Source of the DNA: Bacilli bacterium
GTDB lineage: Bacteria; Bacillota_I; Bacilli_A; RF39; UBA660
Direction: 5' to 3'
Assembly (NCBI GenBank): GCA_017525035.1
Contig: JAFXTH010000004.1
Coordinates: 48,385 to 112,384 of the forward strand
DNA: 64,000 nt
Each line of letters starts with the position of its first letter. Position 1 is the stretch's first letter. Positions 7,235-62,992 of the stretch are shown piece after piece. The notes beneath the pieces are model-generated. The model searched no databases. It was not told the DNA's origin and saw only the letters and a list, made by a program, of their open reading frames with translations. A program made the translations under genes and the position numbers.

Positions 7235-8776
7235 CTATTCATCAAATAATTCTTTTGCTTTATCTTTTAAAGTTTTTTTTGTTTTTTCATTTTTTGGTTC
7301 TTCTTGATATTTGAACTTATCTTTATTGTTTTTATACTCTGCAGTATATTTTTTCCAATCATCTTCAGATAAGCATACAACCATATATTTTCCACCAAAT
7401 GTTTGATTTATTATTTTATTTACTACATCTATATCACTATTTACTTGAGTTGCAATACCATTTAATTTTGATATAAGTATTATATTTGTATCACTTGCTG
7501 CTACTGGCATAGTATCTGATGATAATAATCTTGCTATATTTCCATATTGTTCATCAAACGCTAGGTCTTTTATTTTGTCCCAATTACTTCTTATTTCAGA
7601 AATAATTGTTTTTTGTGGATTATATAATGTATTACCTACTCTTATTTCTATGATATTTTCATCTATTTTATTAGATTCAACTGGTTCTTTTATATTTTTC
7701 TTTAATTCTTCTTTTACTTCATTTGATTGTTTAAACTCTGTTTTGGTTTCTTTTATTGGTTCTTCATCTAGTAAACAATTTATTATAGTTACTTCAAATA
7801 TTATTTTTGGATTTTCTGACTTTTCCATTAAAGTAACCATTTGGTCTAATTCATTTATTAATTTACATAAAGATCTATCATATTTTTTTTCTAATACTAT
7901 TTCATCTCTTAAATATTCAATGATGTTATTAGCTAACTTTAATAAATCTATTCCTTCATTATAAAAATCATTAATTTTTACTATTAATTGTTCTATATTT
8001 TTATTTTGAAATAATGTTATAAAATCATTTAAATCTTGTTCTGAAACGTTTCCTGATATTTCTTTAATTGTGTTAGCAGTTATTGTTTTATCAGTATATG
8101 CCGCAGCTTTTTCTAATAAGCCGATAGCATCTCTTAGCCCGCCATTAGAATATTTTGATATTTCGCTTAATGCTGTATCATCAATATCTATATTTTCTTT
8201 TGTTGATATTTCTTTTAATTTTTGTGTCATTGATTGTGTATCAATCTTTCTAAATTCCAATGTTTGGCATCTTGATATTATTGTTAATGGTACTTTTTGT
8301 AGTTCTGTTGTTGCAAGTACAAAAATTGCATGTTCTGGTGGTTCTTCTAATGTTTTTAGTAATGCATTAAATGCACCAGTTGAAAGCATATGTACCTCAT
8401 CTACAATATATACTTTATATTTTAGTTCTGAAGGAACAAACGATATTTTATTTTTTAATTCTCTTATTTCGTCTACACCATTATTTGATGCTGCATCAAT
8501 TTCTATAATATCTACGCAGCCTGGTTCAATAGATATTTTGCAACTATCACATTTTTCACATGGAACACCATTTTTTGGTGATTCACAGTTAATTGTACGC
8601 GATAATATTTTAGCTATTGAAGTTTTACCTGTTCCTCTAGGTCCATAAAAAAGATACGCATGAGAAATATGATTATTTTCTATAGCATTTTTTAATATTT
8701 GTATTGTTACTTTTTGTCCTACTACTTCATCAAAGTTTTTAGGGCGATATTTTCGATATAATGCTTGAAATTTCAT
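7235..8776 (-). CDS. dnaX: DNA polymerase III tau/gamma subunit.
   Basis: Walker A GPRGTGKTS is present, as are clamp-loader motifs and a zinc module (CEKCDSCK). The start was chosen at ATG 8776 because AGGGGG lies 6 nt upstream; the track's TTG at 8794 is less likely. Confidence 0.9.
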   Translation of the reverse strand: MKFQALYRKYRPKNFDEVVGQKVTIQILKNAIENNHISHAYLFYGPRGTGKTSIAKILSRTINCESPKNGVPCEKCDSCKISIEPGCVDIIEIDAASNNGVDEIRELKNKISFVPSELKYKVYIVDEVHMLSTGAFNALLKTLEEPPEHAIFVLATTELQKVPLTIISRCQTLEFRKIDTQSMTQKLKEISTKENIDIDDTALSEISKYSNGGLRDAIGLLEKAAAYTDKTITANTIKEISGNVSEQDLNDFITLFQNKNIEQLIVKINDFYNEGIDLLKLANNIIEYLRDEIVLEKKYDRSLCKLINELDQMVTLMEKSENPKIIFEVTIINCLLDEEPIKETKTEFKQSNEVKEELKKNIKEPVESNKIDENIIEIRVGNTLYNPQKTIISEIRSNWDKIKDLAFDEQYGNIARLLSSDTMPVAASDTNIILISKLNGIATQVNSDIDVVNKIINQTFGGKYMVVCLSEDDWKKYTAEYKNNKDKFKYQEEPKNEKTKKTLKDKAKELFDE

Positions 8777-8805
8777 ATTATTCCCCCTTAACAAATATCA
8801 ATAAT

Positions 8806-8814
8806 ATTATATCA
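8806..8814 (-). promoter_or_regulatory. Candidate extended -10 element (TGaTATAAT) for dnaX.
   Basis: The minus strand reads tgaTATAAT about 30 nt upstream of the dnaX ATG, and the region further upstream is AT-rich. There is no strong -35. Confidence 0.35.
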
Positions 8815-8856
8815 TATATATACAACAAATTAGTATATTTTCTTTATATTTTTATT

Positions 8857-8874
8857 ATGTTTCACGTGAAACAT
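8857..8874. repeat. 18-bp perfect palindrome ATGTTTCACGTGAAACAT (motif A, copy 1).
   Basis: Perfect dyad symmetry read directly from the sequence. It lies about 45-65 bp upstream of the putative dnaX -10. Confidence 0.9.
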
Positions 8875-8896
8875 TATTTTTCAAAAACAGTTATAG

Positions 8897-8913
8897 TTAC
8901 ACGTGAAACATTA
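8897..8913. repeat. Motif A copy 2 (TTACACGTGAAACATTA; imperfect left arm).
   Basis: It shares CACGTGAAACATTA with copies 1, 3 and 4. Confidence 0.85.
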
Positions 8914-8928
8914 CTTTTTTTTAATAAA

Positions 8929-8950
8929 AAATATTTCCCGGGAAATATTT
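8929..8950. repeat. 22-bp perfect palindrome AAATATTTCCCGGGAAATATTT (motif B, copy 1).
   Basis: Perfect dyad read directly from the sequence. Confidence 0.9.
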
Positions 8951-8971
8951 TTGACTTTTTTTAGGCATTTT

Positions 8972-8993
8972 TATTTCCCGGGAAATATTTCCC
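8972..8993. repeat. Motif B copy 2, TATTTCCCGGGAAATATTTCCC. It holds two overlapping palindromes, TTTCCCGGGAAA and GGGAAATATTTCCC.
   Basis: Read directly from the sequence. Half-sites TTTCCC/GGGAAA alternate in both arrangements. Confidence 0.9.
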
Positions 8994-9005
8994 AAACTTT
9001 TTTAT

Positions 9006-9030
9006 TGTTACACGTGAAACATTATCCACA
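9006..9030. repeat. Motif A copy 3 fused to a consensus DnaA box (TGTTACACGTGAAACATTATCCACA).
   Basis: CACGTGAAACATTATCCACA is identical to 9630-9649, and TTATCCACA is the perfect DnaA-box consensus. It lies immediately downstream of the tadA stop codon. Confidence 0.9.
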
Positions 9031-9034
9031 ATTA

Positions 9035-9457
9035 TTATTTATTTCTAATATTGGTAAAGGCATCTTTAATTATTTTTTCACAGTTGTCTATAATAATTTT
9101 GTTGTTAATCTGTTTAGCTTCAATATTAGAATCGATAACATTATTTTTTGCACCATATACTACTTTGGATATTTTTGTTGCTTTTATTACTTCTTTGCAC
9201 ATTGGACAAGGTTCTAGTGTTGTATATAATACACAATCTAAAAGACGCCAATTATTCAATTTTATATTTGCCTTTTCAATTGCTATAATTTCTGCATGCT
9301 TCGTTATTACTTGTTTTGAATCTCTTAAATTATGTCCTTTTGATACTATTTCATTATTTCTAACAATTACTGCACCAACTGGTATTTCATTTTTATTAAA
9401 AGCTTTTAATGCTTCTTTATATGCAATATTCATAAAATAATTATCATCATTTATCAT
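9035..9457 (-). CDS. tadA: tRNA-specific adenosine deaminase TadA (CDA-fold deaminase).
   Basis: It has the HAEIIAI and PCPMC zinc motifs. The start was taken at ATG 9457, with GGAG 6 nt upstream. The 27-codon N-terminal extension in the track overlaps the SRP RNA gene and is probably not translated. Confidence 0.8.
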   Translation of the reverse strand: MINDDNYFMNIAYKEALKAFNKNEIPVGAVIVRNNEIVSKGHNLRDSKQVITKHAEIIAIEKANIKLNNWRLLDCVLYTTLEPCPMCKEVIKATKISKVVYGAKNNVIDSNIEAKQINNKIIIDNCEKIIKDAFTNIRNK

Positions 9458-9479
9458 ATGATCAACTCCAATAAAAAAT

Positions 9480-9553
9480 GATGCACATAAGCACAGACAT
9501 GTTAAGGCTGCTACATTCCTGTTCTGACCTGGTTCCACCGTACTTATTGCATC
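9480..9553 (-). ncRNA. ffs: Small (4.5S-type) signal recognition particle RNA.
   Basis: The minus strand contains ACCAGGUCAGAACAGGAAUGUAGCAGCC. This matches the universally conserved SRP RNA domain IV (E. coli 4.5S ACCAGGUCAGGUCCGGAAGGAAGCAGCC). The flanks CCAGGUCAG and AGCAGCC are identical and the GGAA tetraloop is present. The long helix is closed by GAUGCA/UGCAUC and AUAAG/CUUAU pairing. It is preceded by a TTGATT-N17-TAAAAT promoter and followed by AUUUUUUAUU. The exact ends are approximate. Confidence 0.75.
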
Positions 9554-9559
9554 AATGTA

Positions 9560-9588
9560 ATTTTACTATAAAAACGCGATATAATCAA
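9560..9588 (-). promoter_or_regulatory. Sigma-A-type promoter for ffs (and possibly tadA): -35 TTGATT (9583-9588), -10 TAAAAT (9560-9565), spacer 17.
   Basis: Read from the minus strand. The predicted transcription start (about 9553) coincides with the 5' end of the SRP RNA helix. Confidence 0.55.
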
Positions 9589-9612
9589 CAAAAAAGAGAA
9601 TTATTCATTCTC
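9588..9612 (-). terminator. Intrinsic terminator at the end of gyrA. The hairpin is GAGAAUgaauaAUUCUC and contains the gyrA UAA stop; it is followed by UUUUUUG.
   Basis: A 6-bp stem plus U-run read on the minus strand. It is AT-rich and therefore weak. Confidence 0.4.
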
Positions 9613-12204
9613 TTTTTCTTCTTCTGTTTCACGTGAAACATTATCCACAGTTTCTGTTAGTTCCACATTTTCTCCAATTTCATCAGTTTCTTCCATTTCT
9701 TCTTTCGCAATTATTGCGGTAGTAGAAACTTTTTGTTCTTCTTTTAATGAAATTAATCTTACTCCTTGAGTATTTCTACTTAATGTAGATATTTGATTAA
9801 TACTTATTCTAATAGTCATACCACTATCAGTAATAATAATTAAATCTTCATCTTCATATACTGTTCTTAATGATACTAAACATCCATTCTTATCAGTAAT
9901 ATTAAGAGTTTTAACTCCTTTGCTTCCTCTATGAGTTAATCTGTATTCATCTATTGGAGTTTTCTTACCATATCCTTTTTCAGTAACAATTAATACTTCT
10001 GCATTTGGTTCAACTACTTCTGCACCAATTACAGTCTCATCTTTTCCTAATTCTATACCTTTAACTCCAGAACTTCCTCTTCCCATTACACGAACTTCTG
10101 TTTCATTAAATCTAACTAATTTACCATTGCTTGCTCCGATGATTATTTCTTTAGTACCATCAGTCTTTCTAACTGCAATTAACTCATCATCATCCTTAAG
10201 AATTATTGCTTTTTTACCATTTGATCTAATGTTATCAAATTCTTCTCTAGCAGTTCTCTTAATTAATCCGCGTTTTGTTATGAATGTTAAGAATGATTGA
10301 TCACTTTCAGCGCTTATTGTTACAACTGAAGTAATTTTTTCTTCTTTTTCTAGTGGTAATAAGTTAACTATTGGTAATCCTTTAGCTTGTCTTGAGAATT
10401 CAGGTACTTCGTAACCTTTCATTCTATATACTTTACCTAAATTACTAAACATTAAAATATAATCATGTGTCTTCATTGATAATAGTTTTTCTGGGAAATC
10501 TTCCTCATTTGTAGACATTCCTTTAATACCAACTCCACCACGATGTTGAACTTTGAATGTATCATTAGTAATTCTCTTAATATATCCTTTATTTGTTAAT
10601 GCAATTAAGATGTTTTCTACTGGTATTAATGATTCATCTTCAATATAATCAACTGCTGTCATATCAATTGTAGTTCTTCTATCATCACTATATTTAGATT
10701 TTATTTCAAGCATTTCTTTCTTGATAATTTCTAATACTTTTTGTTCTGATGCTAGAATTGACTTCAATTCTTCTATTTCTGCAAGAAGTGCAGCAAGTTC
10801 TGCTTCAATCTTATCTCTTTCTAATCCAGTTAATCTACGTAATTTTAATTCTAGAATTGCATCTGTTTGAATTTCTGAAAGCCCAAATTTTTCCATTAAG
10901 CTTTCTTTAGCTTCAACATCAGTTTCTGCATTTCTAATAATTTTAACTACTTCATCAATATTATCAAGTGCTATCTTATAACCTTCTAAGATATGTACTC
11001 TCTTTTCATCTTTTGCAAGATCAAATCTTGTACGTCTTATAATAACTTCTTTTTGGAAGTCTATATATTTAGATATAATTGATTTTAAACTTAATGTCTT
11101 TGGAGTTAATCCATCAAGCATTAATAAGATAATTCCATAAGTAACTTGGAAATTTGTATGTTTATATAAATTATTTAATACTACTTGTGGATTAGCATCT
11201 TTCTTTAATGTAATTGTGATTTTTACTCCATCTTTTAAATCTGTATGGTAATCAGCAATTCCATCAATAGTTTTGTTATGTACAAGTTCAGCTACCTTAT
11301 TCTTTAATTCCATTGTATTAACACCATAAGGTACTTCTGTAATAACTATATTGCTATGAGAACCTTGATCTTCAATTATAGCCTTACTTCTAATAGTAAT
11401 TGTTCCTCTTCCTGTATCGTACGCTTGTTTGATACCAGAGTTACCTAAAATAAGTCCACCTGTTGGAAAATCAGGTCCTTTTATGTGTTGCATTAATCCT
11501 AAAGTGTCGATATCAGGATTATCTATGTATGCTACACATCCATCTATTACTTCACCTAAATTATGTGGTGGAATATTAGTTGCCATACCAACAGCTATTC
11601 CCATTGCACCATTTACTAATACATTTGGAAATCTTCCAGGAAGAACTCTTGGTTCTTTTCTTGTAACATCAAAGTTATCATCCATATCAACTGTATCTTT
11701 GTTGATATCTCTTAATAATTCTAGTGATATTTTAGCAAGACGTGATTCTGTATAACGCATTGCTGCTGCTCCATCACCTTCGATATTACCAAAGTTACCA
11801 TGTCCATCAATTAACATATATCTTTGGTTAAAATCTTGTGCCATTCTAACCATTGCTTCATAAATTGAAGAATCTCCATGTGGATGGTAATTACCCATAA
11901 CTTCTCCAACTGTTTTAGCACTTTTTCTGTGTGGTTTATCTGGAGTATATCCTGATTCATACATTGACCACAAAATACGTCTATGAACTGGTTTTAATCC
12001 ATCACGTAAATCAGGAAGTGCACGTGAAGCAATAACACTCATTGAATATTCCAAGAATGATGTTTTAACTTCTTCAACAATATTGTTTTCAGCTAAACTA
12101 TCTCTTTCATGAAAATATCCACCAAAATTGTTATCAACTTCTACTCTTTCAAGAGATTCATCGAATTCTTCATCTATTTGTTCTTTGTTTTCTTCGTTAT
12201 CCAT
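9601..12204 (-). CDS. gyrA: DNA gyrase subunit A.
   Basis: The 867-aa product contains [25 protein letters not shown], the active-site region (YHPHGD) and an acidic C-terminal tail. It also has an N-terminal acidic extension of about 40 aa. Confidence 0.95.
9625..9649. repeat. Motif A copy 4 plus a consensus DnaA box (TGTTTCACGTGAAACATTATCCACA), embedded in the last codons of gyrA.
   Basis: The 16-bp perfect palindrome TGTTTCACGTGAAACA is followed by TTATCCACA. On the minus strand it encodes ...TVDNVSRET... of the GyrA C-terminal tail. Confidence 0.9.
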
Positions 12205-15344: not shown

Positions 15345-15378
15345 GGTCTAAAACAAAGAAAAAAGGGAATTAATCCCT
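15345..15378 (-). terminator. Terminator-like hairpin (GGGAuuaauuCCC) that contains the ComK-like stop codon and is followed by a U-run.
   Basis: Read on the minus strand. The stem is weak (4 bp) but is flanked by A/T runs on both sides, so it may act bidirectionally. Confidence 0.3.
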
Positions 15379-15828
15379 TTTTTTTGCATTTAATCTCTTA
15401 AAAATTATTGATTCTAATTTTGATGATCGATAAATTTGATTTTCTAAAGATAATTTTGATATATCAAATATCATTTCTTTCCCATTTTTAAAGTAAATTT
15501 TAGTCTTATTATCTACTTTTTCAATTGATTTTATGCTGTTTAAATTAATCCAGCAACAATCATCTAATAATGATGACTTAATAGGAAAAAATATTAGTAC
15601 ACTACTTTCTTCTACTAATATTGGTAATTTGTAGCTGCAATCTAGTATTTTTTTAGCTCCTTCTACCCTACCCATGTAACTACTACCATAGTATTTACAA
15701 CTTTCATCCATTATTTTGTAAGCATCATTATCTAGTATTACATCATAATCTTTTTCAATAATTCTAGTTTTCCCCACATCTGTCGATATTACAGCGTAAG
15801 TATCTTCATTAATTTCATAACAATTCAT
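15370..15828 (-). CDS. comK: ComK-family protein (competence transcription factor homolog).
   Basis: The 152-aa product aligns with B. subtilis ComK across its core. CKYYGSSYMGRVEGAK aligns with CRFFGSSYAGRKAG. CCWINLNSIKSIEK aligns with CGWISHVHVKEFKA. YFKNGKEMIFDISKLSLENQIYRSSKL aligns with TFSNGKTMELPISYNSFENQVYRTAWL. Confidence 0.75.
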   Translation of the reverse strand: MNCYEINEDTYAVISTDVGKTRIIEKDYDVILDNDAYKIMDESCKYYGSSYMGRVEGAKKILDCSYKLPILVEESSVLIFFPIKSSLLDDCCWINLNSIKSIEKVDNKTKIYFKNGKEMIFDISKLSLENQIYRSSKLESIIFKRLNAKKRD

Positions 15829-17159: not shown

Positions 17160-18542
17160 TTAATTATGTATATTTTTTTCTAGTTTATCTATCTCATCTG
17201 CTAAGCTTTTATTATTTTTTATTTCTTGTTCTATTTTCTCACAAGAATGCATAACAGTTGAATGATCTTTTCCACCAAATTCAATTCCTATTTTAGGAAA
17301 TGATTCATCAGTATGTTTTCTACATAAATACATGGCTATTTGCCTTGGAAATGCTATATTTGCATTTCTTTTCTTTGATTTTAAGTCATCAATAGATATT
17401 TTAAAGTAATCTGCTACTATCTTTTGAATTCTACTTACATCATTTTTCTCACTATATCCTGCATTTATATATTCTTTTAAAGCTTCAATTGCAAGATTTA
17501 TATCAATTTCTGCACCCATCATTGTGGAATATGCTATTAATCTTGTTAGGCTTCCAATTAAACTTCTTATATCTGTACCTATATTAGATGCCATATATTC
17601 GATGACATTATCAGGTATTTGTTTATTTATTGATTCAGCAGCTATTAATTTCTTATATATTGCTACTTTTAAATCAAAATCAGGAGGATTAATATTTACT
17701 GATAATCCCCAACTAAATCTAGTCCTAAGTCTATCTTGTAGTATATTTAAATCATTTGGAGATCTATCAGATGAAATAATAATTTGTTTTTCATCATTAT
17801 GTAATGTATTAAATGTATGGAAGAACTCTTTTTGTGATTCTTCTTTTTTTGCTAGATATTGAATATCATCTACTATTAATACATCCACATCTCTATATTT
17901 CTTTTTAAAGAAACTAATATTATCAAAATCACTTTTATTTTCATTTTTTCTAGTAATATCAATAAATTCATTAATAAATGTTTCACTAGTTATGTATAAA
18001 ACTCTTTTATTACTATGCTTTTCTATATAATTACCTATTGCATACATCAAATGAGTCTTCCCTAGCCCACTATTACCATATATAAACAGTGGATTATACA
18101 TTTTACCTGGGTTTTCTGCTACTGCAACCGCTGCAGCATGTGCAAATTTATTACTATTTCCGACTACAAAGTTTTCAAATGTATATTTTTTATTAAGATT
18201 TGATTCAAAGTTATTAGCTTCATTTTCTTCATATAAAGTATTTGCAAGGTCTTCTGTGTCTACGTTACTTAAAATTTCTTTCTCTTCTTCCTCTATATCT
18301 TCTTGTATAAGGAATTCAAGTTCAACCGTCTCCCCTATCTCTTCAATAAAACAAGAAGTTATTAAGTCTTTATATTTAGCTCTTAAGTGATCCTTATGAA
18401 GAAGCATTGGAACTATTATTTTTGCTACACCGTTATTTAAACTATATAATTTTGTATCTTGGAACCACGTTTCGAAGCTCAGAGAGCTTAACTCATTCTT
18501 GATTTTTGTTAAGATTTTTGACCATAATTCTGTGTTATTCAT
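17160..18542 (-). CDS. dnaA: Chromosomal replication initiator DnaA.
   Basis: The 460-aa product has the AAA+ motif GNSGLGKTHL and a C-terminal DNA-binding domain. It is divergent from rpmH. Confidence 0.95.
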   Translation of the reverse strand: MNNTELWSKILTKIKNELSSLSFETWFQDTKLYSLNNGVAKIIVPMLLHKDHLRAKYKDLITSCFIEEIGETVELEFLIQEDIEEEEKEILSNVDTEDLANTLYEENEANNFESNLNKKYTFENFVVGNSNKFAHAAAVAVAENPGKMYNPLFIYGNSGLGKTHLMYAIGNYIEKHSNKRVLYITSETFINEFIDITRKNENKSDFDNISFFKKKYRDVDVLIVDDIQYLAKKEESQKEFFHTFNTLHNDEKQIIISSDRSPNDLNILQDRLRTRFSWGLSVNINPPDFDLKVAIYKKLIAAESINKQIPDNVIEYMASNIGTDIRSLIGSLTRLIAYSTMMGAEIDINLAIEALKEYINAGYSEKNDVSRIQKIVADYFKISIDDLKSKKRNANIAFPRQIAMYLCRKHTDESFPKIGIEFGGKDHSTVMHSCEKIEQEIKNNKSLADEIDKLEKNIHN

Positions 18543-23500: not shown

Positions 23501-23594
23501 TCAAATAAATAATTGTGGTACATTGTGTAAAATGGCATAGTTTATTTGATTTTTTTATCTAAAAATAGTATTATTGTGTTTAGCGGTGGTTGAA

Positions 23595-26500
23595 ATGAAA
23601 TTATTAAACTTAGGATTAGATGTCGGTTCTACTACTGTTAAGCTAGTTGTTTTAGACAGTAAAAAGAATATATTATATAAGGAATATAGAAGACATTTTT
23701 CTGATACAAAGAAAACAATAGGAGATTTACTAGGGGAAGTTATTAAAAAGTATTCTAAAGATAAATTTACTATTACTATGACAGGAAGTGGAGCGCTTGC
23801 GCTTGCTAAGTTTTTGGATGTAAATTTTGTTCAAGAAGTAATTGCATGTAAAAATGCAATTTTTGAGTATGCAAAAGGAGTAGACGTTTGTATAGAACTT
23901 GGTGGAGAAGACGCTAAGATTATTTATTTTGATCATACTATAGAACAAAGAATGAATGGTACTTGCGCAGGAGGTACTGGATCTTTCTTGGATCAAATGG
24001 CGGTTTTATTAAATACTACTACAGAAGGACTTAATGAATATGCTAAAAAGGGTGAAACAATATATCCTATTGCATCAAGATGCGGTGTATTTGCTAAAAC
24101 AGATATTCAACCTTTATTAAATGAAGGAGCTAAAAAAGAAGATATAGCATTATCAATAATGCAAGCTGTTGTTAATCAAACGATAAGTGGACTTGCTTGT
24201 GGTAAACCAATCAAAGGTAATGTAATATTCTTAGGTGGACCATTAACATATTTATCAATGCTAAGAGAAAGATTTATAAAAACATTAAATCTTAAAGATG
24301 AAGAAATATATGCCCCAGAAGATGCTAATTTATTTGTGGCAATAGGAAGTGCTCTTGATACAGAAGAAAAGAAAGAATTTACTAATAAGGAATTAAGTAA
24401 ATTAAAAGAGAAATTAAATGAGTTCACAGAAAGTGAATCAGTAGATTTACCTGCATTATTTAAAGATGATAAAGAATATGCAAAATTTAAAAAGAGACAT
24501 TCTAAAGCATCAGTTAAAAGAAGAGATTTAGCAAAATATCATGGAGATATATTCTTAGGAATAGATGCAGGAAGCACAACCTGTAAGGTTGTTGCAATTA
24601 GCTCAAAAGGTGAACTTTTATATGAAAATTATAAGAGTAATAAAGGTACACCAGTTGATACTGTTAAAAATATGTTATTAGATTTTTATTCTAAATGTCC
24701 TAAAAACACAGTTATAAGACAATGCGGTTCTACAGGATATGGAGAGTTATTAATTAAAACAGCATTTAATTTAGACATTAGTGAAATAGAGACTATGGCT
24801 CATTTTGAAGCAGCAAGATATTTCTTAAAAGAAGTTGAAAGCATTATAGATATCGGTGGTCAAGATATGAAATATATCAAGATCAAAGATGGTTCAGTTA
24901 ATTCTATAATGCTTAATGAAGCTTGTTCGTCTGGATGTGGATCATTTATTGAGACATTAGCTAAAAGTCTTGAAATAAGCATAGATGATTTTGTTGATCT
25001 TGCCGTAAAAAGTAAAGCACCAATTGATTTAGGTAGTCGTTGTACGGTGTTTATGAATAGTAAAATTAAACAAACACAAAAAGAAGGTAGACCGCTTGGT
25101 GATATCTTTGCAGGTCTTTCTTATTCAGTAATTAGAAATGCTATTCAAAAAGTAATGAAAATAAGAGATATGGAAACTCTTGGATCTAAAATAGTTGTTC
25201 AAGGTGGTACATTCTTAAATGATGCAGTATTAAAAGCATTTGAAAATATTACAGGCAAAGAAGTAATAAGACCAGATGTAGCAGGATTAATGGGTGCTTA
25301 TGGAGTAGCATTAATCGCACTTGATAGTTATAAAAAGTATAAGGATAAAGATATAAAGAGTTCTATATTAAATGTAGACGAGATAAATAATCTAGAAATT
25401 AAAACATCTGTTGCAAGATGCCAAAGATGTGAAAACCATTGTGCTCTTACTATAAATAGATTTAATAAAAAAGCTTTTATTTCTGGTAATAGATGTGAAA
25501 GAGGTAGTGGTAACAATGGAAGTAATACAACTCTTCCAAATATGTATTCATGGAAATATGATAGACTATTTGGTTATGAACCACTAGATAATGCTCCTCG
25601 TGGAGAAATAGGAATACCAAGAGTACTTAATATGTATGAAAATTATCCATTATGGTTTACTATACTTACTAATTTAGGATTCAAAGTAGTATTATCAGAT
25701 CATTCAAATAGAAGAATTTATGAAAGCGGAATTGATTCAATACCTAGTGAATCAGTATGTTATCCAGCTAAATTAGTACATGGACATATGGTTAATTTAA
25801 TAGAGAAGGGTGTTAAAACAATTTTTTATCCATGTGTAATATTTGAGAAAGAAGAATTTAAAAACACAGATAATCATTATAACTGTCCAATAGTACAAAG
25901 TTATGGAGAATCCATAAAACTAAACTTAGAAGATTTAAAAAGTAAACACATTAAATATATAAATTCATTCTTACCTTTAGAAGAAAAAACATTAATCAAT
26001 TTATTCTTAAAACTTCCTGAATTTAAAGAATATAAATTTAATAAAAAAGAAGTTAAAGAAGCAGTACATAAAGGATTCTTAGAACAAGAAAAGTTTAAGG
26101 AAGATGTTAGAAAAAAGGGAGAGGAATTCTTAAAATACATTAATGATCATGATGAAAAAGCAATAGTACTTGCAGGAAGACCATATCACTTAGATAAGGA
26201 AGTAAATCATGGTATTGATACAATGATAAATTCTTTAGGTCTTGCTGTATTATCAGAAGATTCAATATGTCATTTAAGTAAATTAGAATCAAATTTGCGT
26301 GTAGTAAATCAATGGGAATATCATGCAAGAATATTCCATGCAGCTGATGTAGTATCACAATATGATAACATTGAACTTGTTAATCTAAACTCATTCGGAT
26401 GTGGACTTGACGCTATTATTACGGATCAGGCTGAAGAAATACTAAGATTTAACAATAAGTTATTTACTACAATAAAAATAGATGAAATAAATAATCTTGG

Positions 26501-27809
26501 AGCAGCGAAGATAAGAATTAGATCTTTGATTGCATCAATGAATAAAAGGATTGAAAGTAATAAATATTCTCCATATGAATATGAGAAGAATTATTTTAAG
26601 AAAAGTGATAAAGAACATATATTACTTCTTCCAGATATGACAGCATTCCATATGCCTTTACTTGAGTCAGTATTAAAAAGTTGTAAATATAAAGCAGTAT
26701 ATCTAAGAGAGACGACAGATAAGACTATTGAAACAGGACTTAAATATGTTAATAACGATGCATGTTATCCTGCAATAATAGTAACTGGTCAATTAATTGA
26801 GGCGTTACAAAGTGGTAAATATGATCTAGATAACACAAGTGTTATTATTACTCAAACTGGTGGAGGATGCCGTGCTACTAACTATATTGGATTAATTAGA
26901 AAAGCACTTAAAGATGCTGGTCTTGAAAAAGTTTCTATATTATCATTCAATTTAAGTGGAATGGAAAAAGAACAAGCATTCAAGATAACTCTTCCAATGG
27001 TTAATAAATTATTACAAGCGGTTGCATATGGTGATTTATTAATGAAACTTCTTTACTCAACAAGACCTTATGAAGTAAATAAAGGTGAAAGTAAGAAGTT
27101 ATATGATAAATGGAATGATATTTGTTATAAAGCAGTAACAAAGGGTAGCATTAGAGAATATAGAAAGAATGTTAAAGCGATTGTTAAAGATTTTGATAAC
27201 ATTAAGGTAAAATTAACAGATAAGCCTAAAGTTGGAATTGTTGGAGAAATCTTAATTAAGTATCATACTTTTGGGAATGATAATTTAGTTGATAAACTTG
27301 AAAAAGAAGGATCAGAAGTATGTGCTCCAGAATTAATGGGATTTGTTAAGTATTGTGCATTCGATAGTATCGCACGAGATAAATTGTTAAAGAAAAATTC
27401 ATTCTATTCATATGCTTGTAAAAAATTAATAAGCATTATTGGATTTTATGAAAAGCCAGTAAACAAAGCATTGGATAAGACAAGATTTAGAAAGACAACA
27501 GATATTTATAAATTATCTAAGAATGTTGAAGGTATTATATCTTTAGCAAACCAGACTGGTGAAGGTTGGTTCTTAACTGGTGAAATGATTGAATTTATTA
27601 AAGAAGGTATAAATAATATCGTCTGTGTTCAACCGTTCGCATGCCTTCCAAACCATATAGTGGGTAAGGCAGTTATAAAAAGAATTAGAGAACTTTACCC
27701 AAATAGTAACATAGTTGCAATAGACTATGATCCAGGTGCAAGTCATACTAATCAAGTTAACAGAATTAAGTTAATGTTAACTGTGGCAAAAGAAAAGCAA
27801 AAGAAATAG
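23595..27809 (+). CDS. Giant fusion protein with two BadF/BadG/BcrA/BcrD-type activator ATPase domains fused to a 2-hydroxyacyl-CoA-dehydratase (HgdB/D-component-like) domain. It is annotated in databases as a 'CoA-substrate-specific enzyme activase'.
   Basis: The two ATPase domains begin GLDVGSTTVKLVV and GIDAGSTTCKVVA. A Cys-rich linker follows (CQRCENHC, CERGSG), then about 700 aa of dehydratase-like sequence. The start was chosen at ATG 23595 after GGTGGT. Confidence 0.65.
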   Translation: MKLLNLGLDVGSTTVKLVVLDSKKNILYKEYRRHFSDTKKTIGDLLGEVIKKYSKDKFTITMTGSGALALAKFLDVNFVQEVIACKNAIFEYAKGVDVCIELGGEDAKIIYFDHTIEQRMNGTCAGGTGSFLDQMAVLLNTTTEGLNEYAKKGETIYPIASRCGVFAKTDIQPLLNEGAKKEDIALSIMQAVVNQTISGLACGKPIKGNVIFLGGPLTYLSMLRERFIKTLNLKDEEIYAPEDANLFVAIGSALDTEEKKEFTNKELSKLKEKLNEFTESESVDLPALFKDDKEYAKFKKRHSKASVKRRDLAKYHGDIFLGIDAGSTTCKVVAISSKGELLYENYKSNKGTPVDTVKNMLLDFYSKCPKNTVIRQCGSTGYGELLIKTAFNLDISEIETMAHFEAARYFLKEVESIIDIGGQDMKYIKIKDGSVNSIMLNEACSSGCGSFIETLAKSLEISIDDFVDLAVKSKAPIDLGSRCTVFMNSKIKQTQKEGRPLGDIFAGLSYSVIRNAIQKVMKIRDMETLGSKIVVQGGTFLNDAVLKAFENITGKEVIRPDVAGLMGAYGVALIALDSYKKYKDKDIKSSILNVDEINNLEIKTSVARCQRCENHCALTINRFNKKAFISGNRCERGSGNNGSNTTLPNMYSWKYDRLFGYEPLDNAPRGEIGIPRVLNMYENYPLWFTILTNLGFKVVLSDHSNRRIYESGIDSIPSESVCYPAKLVHGHMVNLIEKGVKTIFYPCVIFEKEEFKNTDNHYNCPIVQSYGESIKLNLEDLKSKHIKYINSFLPLEEKTLINLFLKLPEFKEYKFNKKEVKEAVHKGFLEQEKFKEDVRKKGEEFLKYINDHDEKAIVLAGRPYHLDKEVNHGIDTMINSLGLAVLSEDSICHLSKLESNLRVVNQWEYHARIFHAADVVSQYDNIELVNLNSFGCGLDAIITDQAEEILRFNNKLFTTIKIDEINNLGAAKIRIRSLIASMNKRIESNKYSPYEYEKNYFKKSDKEHILLLPDMTAFHMPLLESVLKSCKYKAVYLRETTDKTIETGLKYVNNDACYPAIIVTGQLIEALQSGKYDLDNTSVIITQTGGGCRATNYIGLIRKALKDAGLEKVSILSFNLSGMEKEQAFKITLPMVNKLLQAVAYGDLLMKLLYSTRPYEVNKGESKKLYDKWNDICYKAVTKGSIREYRKNVKAIVKDFDNIKVKLTDKPKVGIVGEILIKYHTFGNDNLVDKLEKEGSEVCAPELMGFVKYCAFDSIARDKLLKKNSFYSYACKKLISIIGFYEKPVNKALDKTRFRKTTDIYKLSKNVEGIISLANQTGEGWFLTGEMIEFIKEGINNIVCVQPFACLPNHIVGKAVIKRIRELYPNSNIVAIDYDPGASHTNQVNRIKLMLTVAKEKQKK

Positions 27810-30481: not shown

Positions 30482-31807
30482 ATGAAAAATAAGAAAGAAA
30501 AAGCTTTCACGTTAATTGAATTATTGGCAGTTATTATAATCTTGGGAATACTTATGATTATAGCAATTCCAAGTGTTACTAGTTACATTTCAACATCAAG
30601 AAAAAGCGCATATATTGATACTGCTAGACAGGTTATAGCAAGTACAAGAAATTTAGTTAATAGTGGAAAATTAAGTATGTTTGATAGAAGTGCAACATAT
30701 TATATCCCAACAAGTTGTATTAAACTTGAAAATAGTAATACTCCAGTATCTCCTTATGGAGATTTTGAAAGAGCATATATAGTAGTTACTTACGAAGGGT
30801 CAAATTATAACTACTATTGGGTAAGTGTAGATGAAACAGGACAAGGAATTAGTACACTTACTAAAGTCGATGATTTGGATGAAGATTTAATTAAAACAGG
30901 ATTAAAAGGATCAGATATTGTTTTAGAAAATATTTCTGGAAAGAATCGATTAGTAGAATTCACAGCAGATTGTAAGAATACAATCAATCATGTTGATGAT
31001 GCTGGTTCAGATGCTGCAAATACAACAGATAATATTACATGGACTTATAATGATATGAGTATAAGTGTTGATGTTCATTTATCACAGTGTAACATAAGTG
31101 GCGATTATAAAATTTGTTATAATGCAACAATCGATGCTTCTAATGTTGGAGAAAATGCAACAATTAAATATTTTGAAGCTATATTTGATATTCCGCAAGG
31201 TACTGAATTAGTTCATCAAGGGTATGATCCAGATAAGTTAAAAGCAGAAATTGTTGATGGAAAATTAAAAATTATTGGAAACTCTGGACAAAATACATGG
31301 AATTTTTTAACACCAAGTAACGGATCAAGTCACTTATCAGGTGGTTTCCAAATTAAATTCCCTAAAGATGTTGATTTTGTATTACAAAATGGTAAAATTC
31401 AATATGTTGAATTAGTTAGTGGTGTTCAAGAAGGTAATTCATCAGGAGTTCAAGGCAATGCTTCTGATATGAATATTGATCTTGCAAAACTTAATATTAG
31501 ACTTGTAAGAGATAATTACTATAATAGTGGAAATGGTAAATATACTGCACAATACACTGTATATGTTAAAAACATTTCTGATTCTGATATTACTGATTGG
31601 TCATTTGTTCTTGAAGCACCAGATACTATTACTAATATATCTTCATATAACCCATTAATTTATAGTAAGAGTGGAAATGTTTATACATTTACTCCATTTG
31701 AATGGGATAATGAATATAGAACATTGTCACCAAATGAAACAGCACACTATGATAAAAAATTGGTAATAGAGACAACTGATATGAACGCTATTCCAACAAT
31801 TAGATAG
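30482..31807 (+). CDS. Large type IV pilin-like protein with a prepilin-type N-terminal domain.
   Basis: The N-terminus MKNKKEKAFTLIELLAVIIILGILMIIAIPS is a class III signal-peptide/methylation motif, with Ala instead of Gly at -1 and the conserved Glu at +5. It is followed by about 400 aa of Ser/Thr/Asn/Gly-rich, beta-rich sequence. Confidence 0.65.
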   Translation: MKNKKEKAFTLIELLAVIIILGILMIIAIPSVTSYISTSRKSAYIDTARQVIASTRNLVNSGKLSMFDRSATYYIPTSCIKLENSNTPVSPYGDFERAYIVVTYEGSNYNYYWVSVDETGQGISTLTKVDDLDEDLIKTGLKGSDIVLENISGKNRLVEFTADCKNTINHVDDAGSDAANTTDNITWTYNDMSISVDVHLSQCNISGDYKICYNATIDASNVGENATIKYFEAIFDIPQGTELVHQGYDPDKLKAEIVDGKLKIIGNSGQNTWNFLTPSNGSSHLSGGFQIKFPKDVDFVLQNGKIQYVELVSGVQEGNSSGVQGNASDMNIDLAKLNIRLVRDNYYNSGNGKYTAQYTVYVKNISDSDITDWSFVLEAPDTITNISSYNPLIYSKSGNVYTFTPFEWDNEYRTLSPNETAHYDKKLVIETTDMNAIPTIR

Positions 31808-31904: not shown

Positions 31905-33218
31905 ATGAATGACAATAATAGCGAAGTAGTATATTTATATTTGGATGATATTATTCCAAATAGATTTCAACCAAGAGAAGTATTTGATGAACAAGCATTA
32001 AAAGAATTAGCTGTATCAATCAAAGAACATGGAGTTATACAACCAATTATTGTAAGACAGGTTGAAAATAAATATGAAATTATTGCAGGAGAAAGAAGAT
32101 ATAAGGCATCAACAATGGCAGGTCTTACAAAGATACCTGCAATTGTTAAGAATTTAGATGATAAAGAAAGTTCTAAAATAGCTTTAATAGAAAATCTTCA
32201 GAGAAAAGATTTATCACCAATTGAAGAAGCAAGAACATATCAAAAGATTCTTGAAATTGAGGATAATATGACTCAAGAAGAACTTGCTGCTACTATGGGT
32301 AAAACTCAATCTTCTGTATCTAATAAATTAAGATTGTTAGCATTACCTGAAGAAGTTCAAGATGCTTTATTGAAAGATAAAATATCTGAAAGACATGCAA
32401 GAACATTATTAAACTTAGAAGATAGAAACGATCAAATAAAGATGATGGATCGAGTAATAGAAAATAAAATGACAGTAAGAGAGCTTGAAAAAGCAATTAA
32501 AGAATTTAAAGATCCTACAAGTATTGTGGAAGAAAATCAAGCTATAGATGCAGCTCCAGCGATTGTAAATGTTGATGATGCATCACTTAGTGCTAGCGAT
32601 TTAGTAAATGAAGAATCACAATCAACAGAAAGAACATTGGCGGATACATTTATGGATATTAAAAATGGAATAGACACAGAAACAAATACTGAAGCAGTTT
32701 CTGTTGAAGAACAAATAGACGCAATTGATCCAACAGAAGTAAATATAGACAAAATAAGAGAAAGTGCAGTGGACATTGGAGGAGCAAAAGTTGAAGAGGC
32801 TACAGAAGTAAGTCCTGAACCACAAATGGGATTTAAATTTGTTCCATCGTTCAGTTCAGCAGGAACAGTAACAGAACCTCCAACAACACCGGAAGTTGTG
32901 GCAGTAGAACCCGTAACAGAAGCACCTGCGCCAACTGAAGAAGTATCAGATATATCTCCTGCTTTTGAACAACCATCTCAAGACTTAGTTAATAAAGAAC
33001 CAACACTAGATGAAATAAATCAACCAGATACAATTGCAGCAGAGATTGGAAACCAACCTATAGCAATAGCAGCAGGTGGTAAAGATATATCAACAGCTAT
33101 TGAAAAAATAAAAGAAGAAGTTGATAGTTTAAAGAATGATGGCTACAACGTAATGCTTGATGAAATGGATAATAAAGACAATTATTTGATTTCAATTATT
33201 TTTAAGAAAGATGCATAG
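31905..33218 (+). CDS. noc: ParB-family nucleoid occlusion protein (Noc-like) with a long acidic/Pro/Thr-rich C-terminal extension.
   Basis: The N-terminal ParB motifs are present (IIAGERRYKAS, HTH region). It lies between rsmG and soj, the Noc position in Bacillus. Residues from about 230 to 437 are low-complexity (EPVTEAPAPTEEVSD...). Confidence 0.7.
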   Translation: MNDNNSEVVYLYLDDIIPNRFQPREVFDEQALKELAVSIKEHGVIQPIIVRQVENKYEIIAGERRYKASTMAGLTKIPAIVKNLDDKESSKIALIENLQRKDLSPIEEARTYQKILEIEDNMTQEELAATMGKTQSSVSNKLRLLALPEEVQDALLKDKISERHARTLLNLEDRNDQIKMMDRVIENKMTVRELEKAIKEFKDPTSIVEENQAIDAAPAIVNVDDASLSASDLVNEESQSTERTLADTFMDIKNGIDTETNTEAVSVEEQIDAIDPTEVNIDKIRESAVDIGGAKVEEATEVSPEPQMGFKFVPSFSSAGTVTEPPTTPEVVAVEPVTEAPAPTEEVSDISPAFEQPSQDLVNKEPTLDEINQPDTIAAEIGNQPIAIAAGGKDISTAIEKIKEEVDSLKNDGYNVMLDEMDNKDNYLISIIFKKDA

Positions 33219-33306: not shown

Positions 33307-34092
33307 ATGGGAAAAATGATTTCTTTAGTTAATCAAAAAGGTGGAGTTGGTAAAACTACTACTAGCATTAACTTATCTGCGTCTTTAGCTTATTTAGGTA
33401 AAAAAGTATTATTATTAGATTTAGATCCACAAGGAAATACCACTACTGGTATTGGTATGAATAAAGGTGATATAGATAGAACTATCTATGATGTATTAAC
33501 TGGAAAATGCAATATTGAAGATGCTATTATCCACACACAATACAAGAGATTGGATTTAATTCCAGCAACTGTTAACTTAAGTGGATTAGACACTGAATTT
33601 TTCGAAAAATCTAAAGAAGAACCTAACTTTGTTAAAGGAGCACAATTAAAAAATAAAATTAAATCAATTAGAGACAATTACGATTATATTATCGTTGATT
33701 GCCCACCATCACTAAGTATTATTACAATAAATGCTTTGACTGCATCAAACTCAGTTATAATACCAGTTCAATGTGAGTTCTTAGCACTTGAAGGTATTAT
33801 GCAATTATTAAATACAATTATGATGGCACAAAAACAATTAAATCCTAGTCTTGAAATTGAAGGAGTTTTACTAACAATGTTAGATTCAAGAGCAAATTTA
33901 GGATTTGAAGTAGTTGAAGAAATCAGAAAGTATTTCAAAGAAAGAGTTTATAATACAATTATTCCAAGACTTGTTAGACTTGCAGAGTCTCCATCTCATG
34001 GGAAGCCAATAATAGCATATGATCCAAAATGTAGAGCAACTGATGCTTATATAAATTTAGCGAAGGAAGTGATTGAGAGAAATGGACAATAA
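33307..34092 (+). CDS. soj: Chromosome partitioning ATPase ParA/Soj.
   Basis: The 261-aa product has the deviant Walker A NQKGGVGKTTT. Confidence 0.9.
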   Translation: MGKMISLVNQKGGVGKTTTSINLSASLAYLGKKVLLLDLDPQGNTTTGIGMNKGDIDRTIYDVLTGKCNIEDAIIHTQYKRLDLIPATVNLSGLDTEFFEKSKEEPNFVKGAQLKNKIKSIRDNYDYIIVDCPPSLSIITINALTASNSVIIPVQCEFLALEGIMQLLNTIMMAQKQLNPSLEIEGVLLTMLDSRANLGFEVVEEIRKYFKERVYNTIIPRLVRLAESPSHGKPIIAYDPKCRATDAYINLAKEVIERNGQ

Positions 34093-34966
34093 CACTTATA
34101 AAAGAAGAGCTTTAGGAAAAGGATTAGAGGAACTATTTAACAACGAACAAATTAATTTTGATCAAATTGAGGAGAAAATACTAGATTCAAGTACAAGAGA
34201 TGAAATAGTAGAATTGCCAGTTGATGAGTTAAGACCTAACCCATATCAACCTAGAAAAGTATTTGATGAAGATAAGTTAAATGAACTAGCTAATTCAATT
34301 AAAGAACATGGTATTTTTCAACCAATTATTGTTAAGAAAAGTTCAATAAAAGGTTATGAAATAATTGCCGGTGAAAGAAGAGTTAAAGCTTGTAAAATTG
34401 CTGGTATTGAAAAGATACCTGCTATAGTAAGAGATTTCACTGATGAACAAATGATGGAAATTGCATTGCTAGAAAACTTACAAAGAGAAAATTTAAACTC
34501 AATAGAAGAAGCAATGGCTTATAAAAACTTGCTTGATGCAATGAAAGTAACACAAGAAGAACTTGCTAAAAGGTTAGGTAAGAGTAGAAGTCATATTACT
34601 AACATGTTAGGACTTCTAAATCTTCCTGAAGAAGTAAAAGATATGATTGTAGAAGAGAAAATATCTATGTCTCATGCAAGAGTATTAAGTAAGATGGAAA
34701 ATAAAGAAGAAGTTATAGCACTTGCTAATAGAATTGTTAATGAAAGATTAAATGTTAGAGATATAGAAGATGTATCTAAAGATGAATCTATCAAGAAAAC
34801 ACATAAGATTAAAGTAAAACAAAACAATAAATATGAGTATATTCAAAATACAATGTGTGAAAAACTAGGTACAAAAGTTAAGATAACTTCTAATAGAATA
34901 AATATTACATTTACTAATGATAATGATCTAAATAGAATATTAGAAATATTAAATATTGGTGAATAA
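34082..34966 (+). CDS. spo0J: Chromosome partitioning protein ParB/Spo0J.
   Basis: It has ParB box motifs (IIAGERRVKACK, HTH LAKRLGKSRSHITN) and overlaps the soj stop. The start was chosen at MDNNTY; the track starts at 34073. Confidence 0.85.
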   Translation: MDNNTYKRRALGKGLEELFNNEQINFDQIEEKILDSSTRDEIVELPVDELRPNPYQPRKVFDEDKLNELANSIKEHGIFQPIIVKKSSIKGYEIIAGERRVKACKIAGIEKIPAIVRDFTDEQMMEIALLENLQRENLNSIEEAMAYKNLLDAMKVTQEELAKRLGKSRSHITNMLGLLNLPEEVKDMIVEEKISMSHARVLSKMENKEEVIALANRIVNERLNVRDIEDVSKDESIKKTHKIKVKQNNKYEYIQNTMCEKLGTKVKITSNRINITFTNDNDLNRILEILNIGE

Positions 34967-62137: not shown

Positions 62138-62992
62138 ATGGTATTAAAAATGAAACGAAGATTTAAAAAAATATATGTAGAGATAACAAATAGATGTAAT
62201 TTGAAATGTTCCTTTTGTAGTAAGTTAGATCGAGAAATAAAAGAAATGTCTTTAGAAGATTTTAAAACAGTTATATCTAAGATTAAACCTTTTACTGATT
62301 ATATTTATCTACATGTTAAAGGGGAACCTTTATTACATTCTAGACTTGATGATATATTATCTATTTGTGATAAAGAAAATATTCAAGTAAATATAACTAC
62401 TAATGGAACATTATTAAAAGATAAACTAAATATTTTGTCTAGTCATGCATCTATTAGGCAGATAAATGTTTCACTACATTCAGAAAATAATTTTAAAGAT
62501 TATTTTGAAAATATATTTGATGCTTGTGATAAGTTATCTGAAAAAATTTATATAAGTTATAGAATTTGGAATCTTGATGAATTGCATTTGGATGAAAAAT
62601 CCACTACTATTGTGGATAAAATAATCAATCACTATAAGTTACCAACAAAAGTTGTTGATAAACTTAAAAAAGATAAAGATACAACAATATCTAATAACAT
62701 ATTTGTTAATAAAGATAATTTGTTTACTTGGCCTGATAGCTTTAGTAACTATGATTTAGATGGAAAGTGCTACGGACTTAATACTCATATTGGTATTTTA
62801 GTTGATGGCACAATTATTCCCTGTTGTTTAGATGGTAATGGCCAAATCAACTTAGGTAATATATTTAAAAATAACCTAGAAGATGTGTTAAACAGTAAAA
62901 AAGTTTTAGACATGATAAATGGCTTTAAAAACGGTAAATCTATCTGTCAACTTTGCAAGAATTGTAATTTTAGAAATAGATTTATTAAATAA
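62138..62992 (+). CDS. Radical SAM protein with a C-terminal Cys-rich (SPASM/twitch-like) region.
   Basis: It has CNLKCSFC (CX3CX2C) and a C-terminal CYGL...IPCCLDG...CQLCKNC cluster. Confidence 0.6.
   Translation: MVLKMKRRFKKIYVEITNRCNLKCSFCSKLDREIKEMSLEDFKTVISKIKPFTDYIYLHVKGEPLLHSRLDDILSICDKENIQVNITTNGTLLKDKLNILSSHASIRQINVSLHSENNFKDYFENIFDACDKLSEKIYISYRIWNLDELHLDEKSTTIVDKIINHYKLPTKVVDKLKKDKDTTISNNIFVNKDNLFTWPDSFSNYDLDGKCYGLNTHIGILVDGTIIPCCLDGNGQINLGNIFKNNLEDVLNSKKVLDMINGFKNGKSICQLCKNCNFRNRFIK

Follow-up and report, generated by a model that had tools for sequence, protein, structure and literature searches.

A predicted cluster of parS sites, Noc-binding sites and DnaA boxes near the replication origin of an uncultured gut Bacilli bacterium

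Our analysis concerns a 20-nucleotide sequence, CACGTGAAACATTATCCACA, that stands in two identical copies on either side of the adjoining ffs and tadA genes in a 64,000-nucleotide stretch of a Bacilli genome (RF39; contig JAFXTH010000004.1, positions 48,385 to 112,384), referred to here as the window. Read as sequence, the 20-mer is the right half of a parS site, at which the partition protein ParB loads, fused to a DnaA box, and not an att-like repeat. Within an explanation that also couples DnaA to partition, and that we consider very probable as a whole, the two copies mark two composite sites, each a parS with an abutting DnaA box, in an origin-proximal hub at 8858-9649 that holds four parS, two Noc-binding sites (NBS) and two DnaA boxes and lies 9-10 kb from the chromosomal origin oriC. 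Because four parS and two NBS fall within 800 bp, 9 kb from oriC, we predict with high confidence, from sequence and homology, that the origin region is partitioned and organised from this hub. The parS sites themselves look ordinary; it is their pairing with DnaA boxes and NBS in these uncultured gut bacteria that appears unusual, and the conserved three-way arrangement is the part worth pursuing, the 20-mer at its heart being an ordinary centromere site.

Results

Composition of the cluster

The 20-mer occurs in two exact copies on the plus strand, at 9011-9030 and 9630-9649, where shuffled versions of the 64-kb window give an expectation of 0. Its left part is a portion of the 16-bp palindrome TGTT(T/A)CACGTGAAACA, a parS sequence, and its right part is a perfect DnaA box, which in both copies begins at the first base after parS. 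An earlier note on this DNA had described the direct repeat, the position of the second copy within the coding tail of gyrA and its place about 35 bp upstream of the ffs promoter, and these observations are confirmed here: the copy falls in the last 16 codons of gyrA, 37 nt upstream of a plausible ffs -35 hexamer. The copies do extend leftward as nearly identical palindrome arms, at 24/25 positions (TGTT[A/T]CACGTGAAACATTATCCACA) where the note had counted 25 of 26, and diverge beyond. The palindrome, seen twice by the note, is real in both places and occurs four times in the window (8858, 8895, 9006 and 9625), and a second palindrome that had been missed, TATTTCCCGGGAAATA, stands twice between parS sites (8932 and 8972). 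The oriC boxes are all off-consensus, as had been stated, with one mismatch in each of six. The claim that the repeat carries the only perfect DnaA boxes in the window has to be corrected: four copies of TTATCCACA are present against 0.96 expected. The further two lie at 33527-33535, in the parA/soj coding sequence, and at 62611-62619, in the open reading frame (ORF) 62138-62992.

The sites of the cluster are listed below, with the strand where one is assigned. Conservation refers to eight aligned sequences, namely the window, six conspecific or near-conspecific assemblies found through their identical YbaB (L201-L206) and the sister species L001.

8858-8873, parS-1: exact consensus TGTTTCACGTGAAACA; invariant in the 8 strains or species
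8895-8910, parS-2: AGTTACACGTGAAACA, 1 mismatch to TGTTNCACGTGAAACA; core kept in the strains and in L001
8932-8947, NBS-1: exact Noc-binding consensus TATTTCCCGGGAAATA; invariant in 8/8 sequences
8972-8987, NBS-2: exact Noc-binding consensus; kept in 7/8 sequences, with a degenerate parS aligned in L001
9006-9021, parS-3: TGTTACACGTGAAACA, with A at the N position; directly downstream of the tadA stop codon
9022-9030, plus strand, DnaA box: perfect TTATCCACA, offset 0 to parS-3, on its oriC-proximal side; kept in L201-L206
9625-9640, parS-4: exact consensus; in the last gyrA codons, encoding N-V-S-R-E-T
9641-9649, plus strand, DnaA box: perfect TTATCCACA, offset 0 to parS-4; within gyrA, encoding V-D-N

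Across the 64 kb scanned there are no parS other than these four (two exact, one with A at the N position and one with a single mismatch), all of which fall within 8858-9640, and the two exact NBS likewise have no counterpart elsewhere. Both consensus sequences match published ones letter for letter, TGTTTCAC-GTGAAACA for parS (TGTTTCACGTGAAACA) and TATTTCCC-GGGAAATA for NBS (TATTTCCCGGGAAATA) (PMC7383237). Between 8777 and 9700 the only DnaA boxes with at most one mismatch are the two of the composites, 619 bp apart and one per parS. The predicted parS sites combine a consensus palindrome, cognate ParB and ParA proteins, proximity to the origin and conservation against diverging flanks; the perfect boxes at 9022 and 9641 are accompanied by a dnaA gene at 17160-18542; and, judged by sequence, all three types of site are what they are called here.

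For the NBS palindromes a role as plain terminators was also considered: their stems have at most 1-2 G-C pairs, and a consensus scan gave one overlapping weak match only. A protein-binding site is favoured because the exact 16-mer is kept across 64 species with varying flanks.

The five palindromes of the tadA-dnaX spacer (at 8858, 8895, 8932, 8972 and 9006; parS, parS, NBS, NBS, parS) start 37, 37, 40 and 34 bp apart, or about 3.5 helical turns, and the distances between parS and NBS in relatives are similar (27, 35-37 and 45-50 bp).

Conservation within the lineage

None of the parS, NBS or boxes is disrupted in L201-L206. The diverged L202 keeps the tadA-side composite although bases have changed on both sides of it and 13 nt are inserted directly after parS. 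Over the eight sequences, 10/89 motif columns of the tadA-dnaX spacer are variable against 141/238 non-motif columns (p 5e-16); with L001 left out the counts are 1/89 and 58/238, and in the gyrA tail they are 0/25 and 25/125. The alignments provide evidence for purifying selection on the motif columns.

The last 50 nt of gyrA, which contain the box, parS-4 and a putative terminator stem, are 100% identical between the window and L001, against 64-68% with an indel in the preceding 50 nt; over the whole gene the two are 92% identical, and 81% at third codon positions. The earlier note had called a regulatory site held under protein-coding constraint inside gyrA unusual. The acidic tail of GyrA is hypervariable among relatives, pointing to weak constraint on the protein, and tails of the related loci L002-L010 are unrelated acidic sequences without parS. 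Conservation in the tail therefore concerns the DNA sites, the encoded protein being little constrained.

In L001, the closest species, the box on the tadA side reads TGTTGATAA, with one mismatch, and lies 7 nt from the equivalent of parS-3; the word at this position is also listed as TTATCAACA. Because this box is both displaced and mismatched, the exact 20-mer is, to judge from the alignment, a recent sharpening in the window's lineage of an older arrangement with a box near parS, possibly by way of a 7-nt indel and one substitution, or of short-tract conversion.

NBS-2 (8972-8987) aligns in L001 with a degenerate parS, TGTTTCATGTGAAACA (~9215-9230), beside a 47-nt indel. Since two positions in each half-site distinguish parS from NBS, sites of the two kinds may interconvert by point mutation within arrays.

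Clusters in related species

Relatives were compared through a GyrA-anchored scan that yielded 80 species-level genomes with 70-97% GyrA identity, each covered by a 14-kb locus that does not reach oriC. They are uncultured gut Bacilli labelled Clostridium sp. CAG:302, CAG:1193, Ca. Scybalousia, Tenericutes and Erysipelotrichaceae, and were grouped into lineages by average-linkage clustering of GyrA identities. The order gyrB-gyrA-ffs-tadA-dnaX-ybaB-recR is conserved, with gyrA-tadA-dnaX found in all 80 species where the contig is long enough and ffs detected in most. In these relatives parS is confined to the interval from gyrA to dnaX, where, depending on the subclade, it occupies the gyrA-ffs spacer, the tadA-dnaX spacer or both, and it is for this reason that the copies in the window flank ffs-tadA. 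parS is carried by 70/81 loci (the relatives and the window), with 304 sites in all and up to 10 per locus. NBS are carried by 64/80 relatives; of 192 NBS sites, 144 have a parS within 300 nt, and few occur elsewhere in the 64-kb window and the 14-kb loci, which corresponds to a computed concentration of about 50-fold inside the parS cluster. Cluster size in the relatives ranges from 1-13 units over up to ~1.5 kb. A counterpart of parS-4 is present, among the examined loci, only in the window, L201-L206 and L001.

Two close relatives whose gyrA tail lacks parS, L003 and L006, carry TGTGGAAAA, which contains a TTTTCCACA box, at the 3' end of gyrA or just past its terminator (~8550-8560 and ~8535-8545, respectively); a DnaA box near the gyrA-ffs junction may predate parS there. 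In L066, the closed 1.31-Mb chromosome of a related uncultured bacterium, positions 9041-10133 hold 13.2 tandem copies of an 83-bp unit, each made up of AGTGGAAAA (box-like), AGTTTCACGTGAAACA (parS-like) and an exact NBS.

DnaA boxes beside parS

An unbiased 6-mer test of the 25-nt parS flanks against the rest of the loci ranks the cores of the DnaA box (TCCACA, TTCCAC, CCACAG and TGTGGA, 6- to 18-fold) and of the NBS (CCCGGG, 12-fold) at the top. Counting boxes at up to one mismatch to the consensus 9-mer, 71/304 parS, in 23/70 loci, have a DnaA box within 24 nt, against 3.5% expected, and nearly all of these boxes lie 0-8 nt from the parS edge. Box density within the same AT-rich spacers is 8.9/kb beside parS, 0.71/kb elsewhere and 0.64/kb beside NBS, and across the 80 related species the 10 nt next to parS show a 12.5-fold enrichment of boxes. 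The enrichment of boxes is specific to parS and, like motif identity, conservation and the presence of cognate proteins, was identified directly.

The geometry of the pairing is fixed within a lineage and differs between lineages, at least six geometries being distinguishable. In the window's group the box reads outward at offset 0-2 on the oriC side; elsewhere it is inverted at offset 0-1, at offset 4 on the far side, at offset 6-7, or inverted at offset 1-3. Beyond parS and box, the flanks within a locus are no more alike than random sequences (identity 0.24-0.46), and in L018, where no tandem repeat is detectable, (T)(T)GTGGAAA comes after 7/8 parS. A concordant box at two or more parS is seen in 17/62 loci, against a mean of 0.007 (maximum 1) in composition-preserving shuffles of the flanks. 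In an outgroup of 120 unrelated metagenomic contigs with consensus parS and 26-73% GC, a box stands near parS in 2/201 cases (1%), which is the chance rate, and NBS are absent from these contigs. The pairing of parS and box is therefore a property of this clade and not of parS generally.

One of the two outgroup matches, the metagenome contig L164 (26% GC), has a parS with boxes on either side, TGTGAATAA before it and TTATCCACA after it, and may belong to a related low-GC lineage.

Origin and cognate proteins

The genes and other features to which the cluster relates are as follows.

7235-8776, minus strand: dnaX, with its ATG at 8776 behind a GGGGGA ribosome-binding site
9035-9466, minus strand: tadA; gene callers start it 9 nt later, at 9457, in sister strains
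9470-9559, minus strand: ffs, the small signal recognition particle RNA (Rfam RF00169, 48.8 bits)
9591-9617, minus strand: putative gyrA terminator hairpin, with 11-nt arms and a 5-nt loop containing the stop codon, followed by a T-run; read from the sequence
9601-12204, minus strand: gyrA (NF004043, 1135 bits)
17160-18542, minus strand: dnaA
18627-18809, no strand: oriC DnaA-box cluster of six boxes, one mismatch each, at the GC-skew switch
31905-33218, plus strand: Noc-like ParB paralogue, 437 amino acids; best PDB match Noc 7NG0 (1e-61)
33307-34092, plus strand: ParA/Soj-type ATPase
34073-34966, plus strand: ParB/Spo0J, 297 amino acids; best PDB match B. subtilis Spo0J 6SDK (9e-62)

The hairpin at the end of gyrA has fewer than 3 G-C pairs and does not appear in the output of the consensus scan. 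The gene names that had been assigned to the dnaA-to-recR block are correct, the minus strand carrying dnaA, dnaN, recF, gyrB, gyrA, ffs, tadA, dnaX, ybaB and recR. GC skew changes sign at 18-20 kb, by dnaA and the six-box cluster, which places oriC next to dnaA and puts the parS/NBS cluster in the left replichore, 9-10 kb from its start. The genes for the Noc-like protein, ParA and ParB adjoin rsmG on the opposite side of oriC from the cluster, with the noc-like gene between rsmG and parA.

ParB has the Pfam domains ParB_N and HTH_ParB, and its GKSRSH motif supplies the R found at the parS-specific position. The Noc-like protein has Q, K, A and R at the specificity positions Q173, K179, K184 and R201 (ParB numbering), of which 3/4 are of the NBS type; the two residues that contact bases are present, as is one permissive lysine of the two, and K at either permissive position suffices for NBS specificity (PMC7383237). 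Ahead of its short C-terminal domain the Noc-like protein contains an acidic, proline-rich, low-complexity insert of ~170 amino acids.

Discussion

ParB dimers nucleate at parS, close as clamps bound to cytidine triphosphate (CTP), slide and bridge over several kb, load SMC and stimulate the ATPase of ParA, and Noc nucleates at NBS in a ParB-like manner. In the bacterium studied here, ParB would nucleate on the parS of the hub, close CTP-dependent clamps and spread over the origin region, where the clamped protein would recruit SMC and activate ParA, and the Noc-like paralogue would nucleate on the NBS within the same few hundred bp. The boxes of the hub are nearer to the consensus than any box of oriC, and a lower DnaA level should suffice to fill them than is needed at the origin; and as the abutting geometry would leave no space between domain IV of DnaA and the ParB dimer, direct contact or competition is to be expected at the sites where ParB loads. 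One option is that the boxes act as a high-affinity sink for DnaA, duplicated seconds after initiation, at a place where ParB would make the ParA monomers that inhibit DnaA; another is that DnaA gates the loading of ParB, as proposed for Caulobacter. There are three precedents: DnaA-box clusters (DBCs) of B. subtilis act synergistically with Spo0J/Soj against over-initiation (PMC3245932), DnaA of Caulobacter binds boxes of the parS region (PMC6399470), and Noc of S. aureus restrains initiation (PMC5540599). We prefer the reading in which DnaA is coupled to the partition complex through these boxes, although we regard this part as evenly balanced, with the binding itself predicted and the direction and purpose of the interplay between DnaA and ParB conjectural. 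It is very probable, again for the explanation taken as a whole, that the exact identity of the two 20-mers arose from two near-consensus sites abutting in the same geometry and not from a mobile element.

Several points weigh against coupling of DnaA to the partition complex. Among species that have parS clusters, only about one third show recognisable boxes beside parS, and coupling is thus not a strict requirement; on which side of parS the box stands, and how it is oriented relative to oriC, vary between lineages, which speaks against a single simple geometry, such as a one-way roadblock toward oriC; and the enrichment statistics are inflated by the shared ancestry of the species, although at least six distinct geometries are present. 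In B. subtilis, the control of DnaA by ParA is independent of where parS is located (PMC7614844), and proximity is therefore not required there. The Noc-like protein, to judge from PDB alignment and a check of its ORF start, also has no counterpart of the amphipathic helix that targets B. subtilis Noc to the membrane through its N-terminus: the Noc-like protein's own N-terminus is MNDNNSEVVYLYL, its residues 3-7 align to residue 25 of the Noc structures, and the ORF has no upstream start codon. Because the membrane-binding helix is missing, its function may differ from nucleoid occlusion by membrane tethering. Finally, a protein other than DnaA could bind the 9-mer, a point to which we return below.

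Two more specific roles for the boxes were considered and rejected. DnaA as a one-way roadblock shielding oriC from sliding ParB cannot be general, as the boxes of the window are on the oriC side and those of other lineages on the far side. A second origin, or part of a split oriC, is at odds with one box per parS and with the location of the GC-skew switch and the six-box cluster at 18.6-18.8 kb.

More speculatively, parS, DnaA box and NBS could form a dedicated cis module of reduced-genome gut Bacilli that physically ties the initiator to the places where two CTP-dependent clamps, ParB and the Noc-like paralogue, load. Such a module might act as a centromere-based checkpoint, in which either DnaA gates ParB loading or ParB/ParA captures and inactivates DnaA right after initiation, and the Noc-like protein would be a second centromere protein and not a nucleoid-occlusion factor. 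We put this forward tentatively, as an extension that may well prove wrong.

Among the alternatives, it is improbable that the sites are a composite transcriptional operator, as the earlier note had suggested, on which ParB and DnaA, bound at the 25-bp composite, would exert joint control, by repression or activation, over the ffs-tadA and dnaX promoters. parS-1 does lie ~45 nt upstream of a conserved dnaX extended -10, and parS-4 37 nt upstream of the candidate ffs -35; DnaA is a transcription factor in B. subtilis (PMC6399470; PMC3245932), and ParB is reported to affect parS-adjacent promoters in P. aeruginosa (PMC5521831) and the development of competence in S. pneumoniae (PMC4488948). However, the cluster may occupy either spacer, with 1-13 units over up to ~1.5 kb, so that site-to-promoter distances vary; the putative gyrA terminator hairpin lies downstream of parS-4 and its box, which are within the gyrA transcription unit and not in the ffs promoter; the composites are at the ends of the cluster farthest from the dnaX promoter; and the NBS are left unaccounted for. 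What endures of the suggestion is a composite of a DnaA box and the site of a palindrome-binding factor, which would be ParB/Spo0J, the box being conserved and enriched beside parS throughout the clade; the coordination of the ffs-tadA and dnaX promoters is not supported.

We attach the same low probability to the 9-mer beside parS not being a DnaA site at all, and instead either prolonging the sequence that ParB recognises or binding some other factor. Some extended preference exists at the ParB sites, with T at +1 in 90% of flanks. On the other hand, the 9-mer occurs in both orientations and at offsets of 0-8, which is unlike an extension of a symmetric ParB site, and its variants TTATCCACA, TTTTCCACA and TTATCAACA are the words that compose the oriC cluster of the window.

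Slightly less credible again is neutral duplication or gene conversion, by which one composite was recently copied to the other position with the DnaA box as a functionless hitch-hiker. Such copying would sit well with the 24/25 identity of the composites, and the different and displaced tadA-side box of L001 implies that exact identity arose in the window's lineage, possibly by short-tract conversion. Yet the abutting arrangement persists in L202 despite the changes around it, L001 retains a one-mismatch box near the same parS, the motif columns are far less variable than their neighbours, and the placing of a box beside parS is repeated in at least six lineages, which differ in its side, orientation and spacing and have unrelated flanks.

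The earlier proposal of att-like or target-site direct repeats that mark ffs-tadA as a former insertion or inversion cassette, prompted by identical 20-mers bracketing these genes in direct orientation, can be set aside as extremely unlikely: the repeat is by sequence a palindromic protein-binding site with 4 copies here and up to 10 in relatives, the tadA-side box differs in L001, gyrA-tadA-dnaX order is kept in all 80 species where the contig suffices, with ffs detected in most and no presence/absence polymorphism of the segment, ffs and tadA, the only genes bracketed, are core housekeeping genes, and from gyrA to recR there is no ORF for a recombinase or transposase.

Returning to the partition hub with its coupled DnaA boxes, its components can be compared with known systems. 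In B. subtilis the parS sites are spread across a large part of the chromosome, and a parS inside spo0J is well known. The sites of the window resemble the Firmicute parS/Spo0J system of that species (consensus TGTTNCACGTGAAACA) in their 16-bp consensus, origin-proximal position, several copies and cognate ParB, ParA and Noc genes, but they are 34-40 bp apart (the gyrA-tail copy excepted), interleaved with NBS and abutted by boxes, and some relatives of the window have tandem arrays of up to 13 units. B. subtilis has eight parS in its oriC-proximal region (PMC3245932). With the Noc-NBS systems of B. subtilis and S. aureus the window shares exact consensus NBS and a ParB paralogue with Q/K/R specificity residues; unlike in those systems, the NBS of the window and of the 14-kb loci are concentrated in the parS cluster, and the Noc-like protein is without the amphipathic helix and has the long acidic, proline-rich insert.

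DnaA was reportedly found by Mera et al. in 2014 to bind at the parS centromere of Caulobacter crescentus. The likeness to that case, as summarised in PMC6399470, is in the presence of boxes at the centromere, a sign that the partition locus, as well as the origin, may be a target of the initiator; Caulobacter belongs to another phylum, however, and the clade of the window has a single box per parS at a lineage-specific 0-8 nt. The DBCs of B. subtilis, which restrain initiation (PMC3245932), and datA of E. coli are similar in placing DnaA boxes outside yet near the origin. Those loci consist of several boxes not joined to parS, whereas in the window one box is directly adjacent to each composite's parS, several closely spaced boxes are not found at 8777-9700, and the boxes are nearer to the consensus than those of its own oriC. 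Chromosome II of Vibrio cholerae offers, in parS2-B/rctA, a further centromere site where a partition protein and an initiator meet on a short piece of DNA (PMC3688505; PMC6399470); there, the initiator is RctB and not DnaA, the replicon is a secondary one, and ParB2 spreads into the origin itself.

A literature search for DnaA boxes abutting parS, or for interleaved arrays of parS and NBS, found no description of either, within a coverage that was incomplete and in which absence is not proof. How bacteria coordinate the initiation of replication (DnaA), the segregation of origins (ParABS) and the control of division (Noc) is still debated. The links known in B. subtilis are indirect, running from ParB through ParA to DnaA regardless of the location of parS; the repeated evolution of a box 0-8 bp from a ParB loading site, together with interleaved Noc sites, points to a direct, short-range interplay. 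The textbook division between parS near the origin and scattered NBS does not appear valid for all Firmicutes, and for annotation the arrangement is a signature by which centromeres can be recognised in a large group of uncultured gut bacteria.

Other open reading frames

Three further ORFs are of note. A ComK-family ORF (15370-15828, minus strand; Pfam PF06338, 2.8e-38) lies between dnaN and recF, an unusual position within the otherwise canonical dnaA-dnaN-recF-gyrB-gyrA block. A 441-amino-acid ORF (30482-31807, plus strand), which separates rsmG from the noc-like gene, has a prepilin-type N-terminal methylation motif and no other family match, and an ORF of 1411 amino acids (23574-27809, plus strand) lies between mnmE and mnmG.

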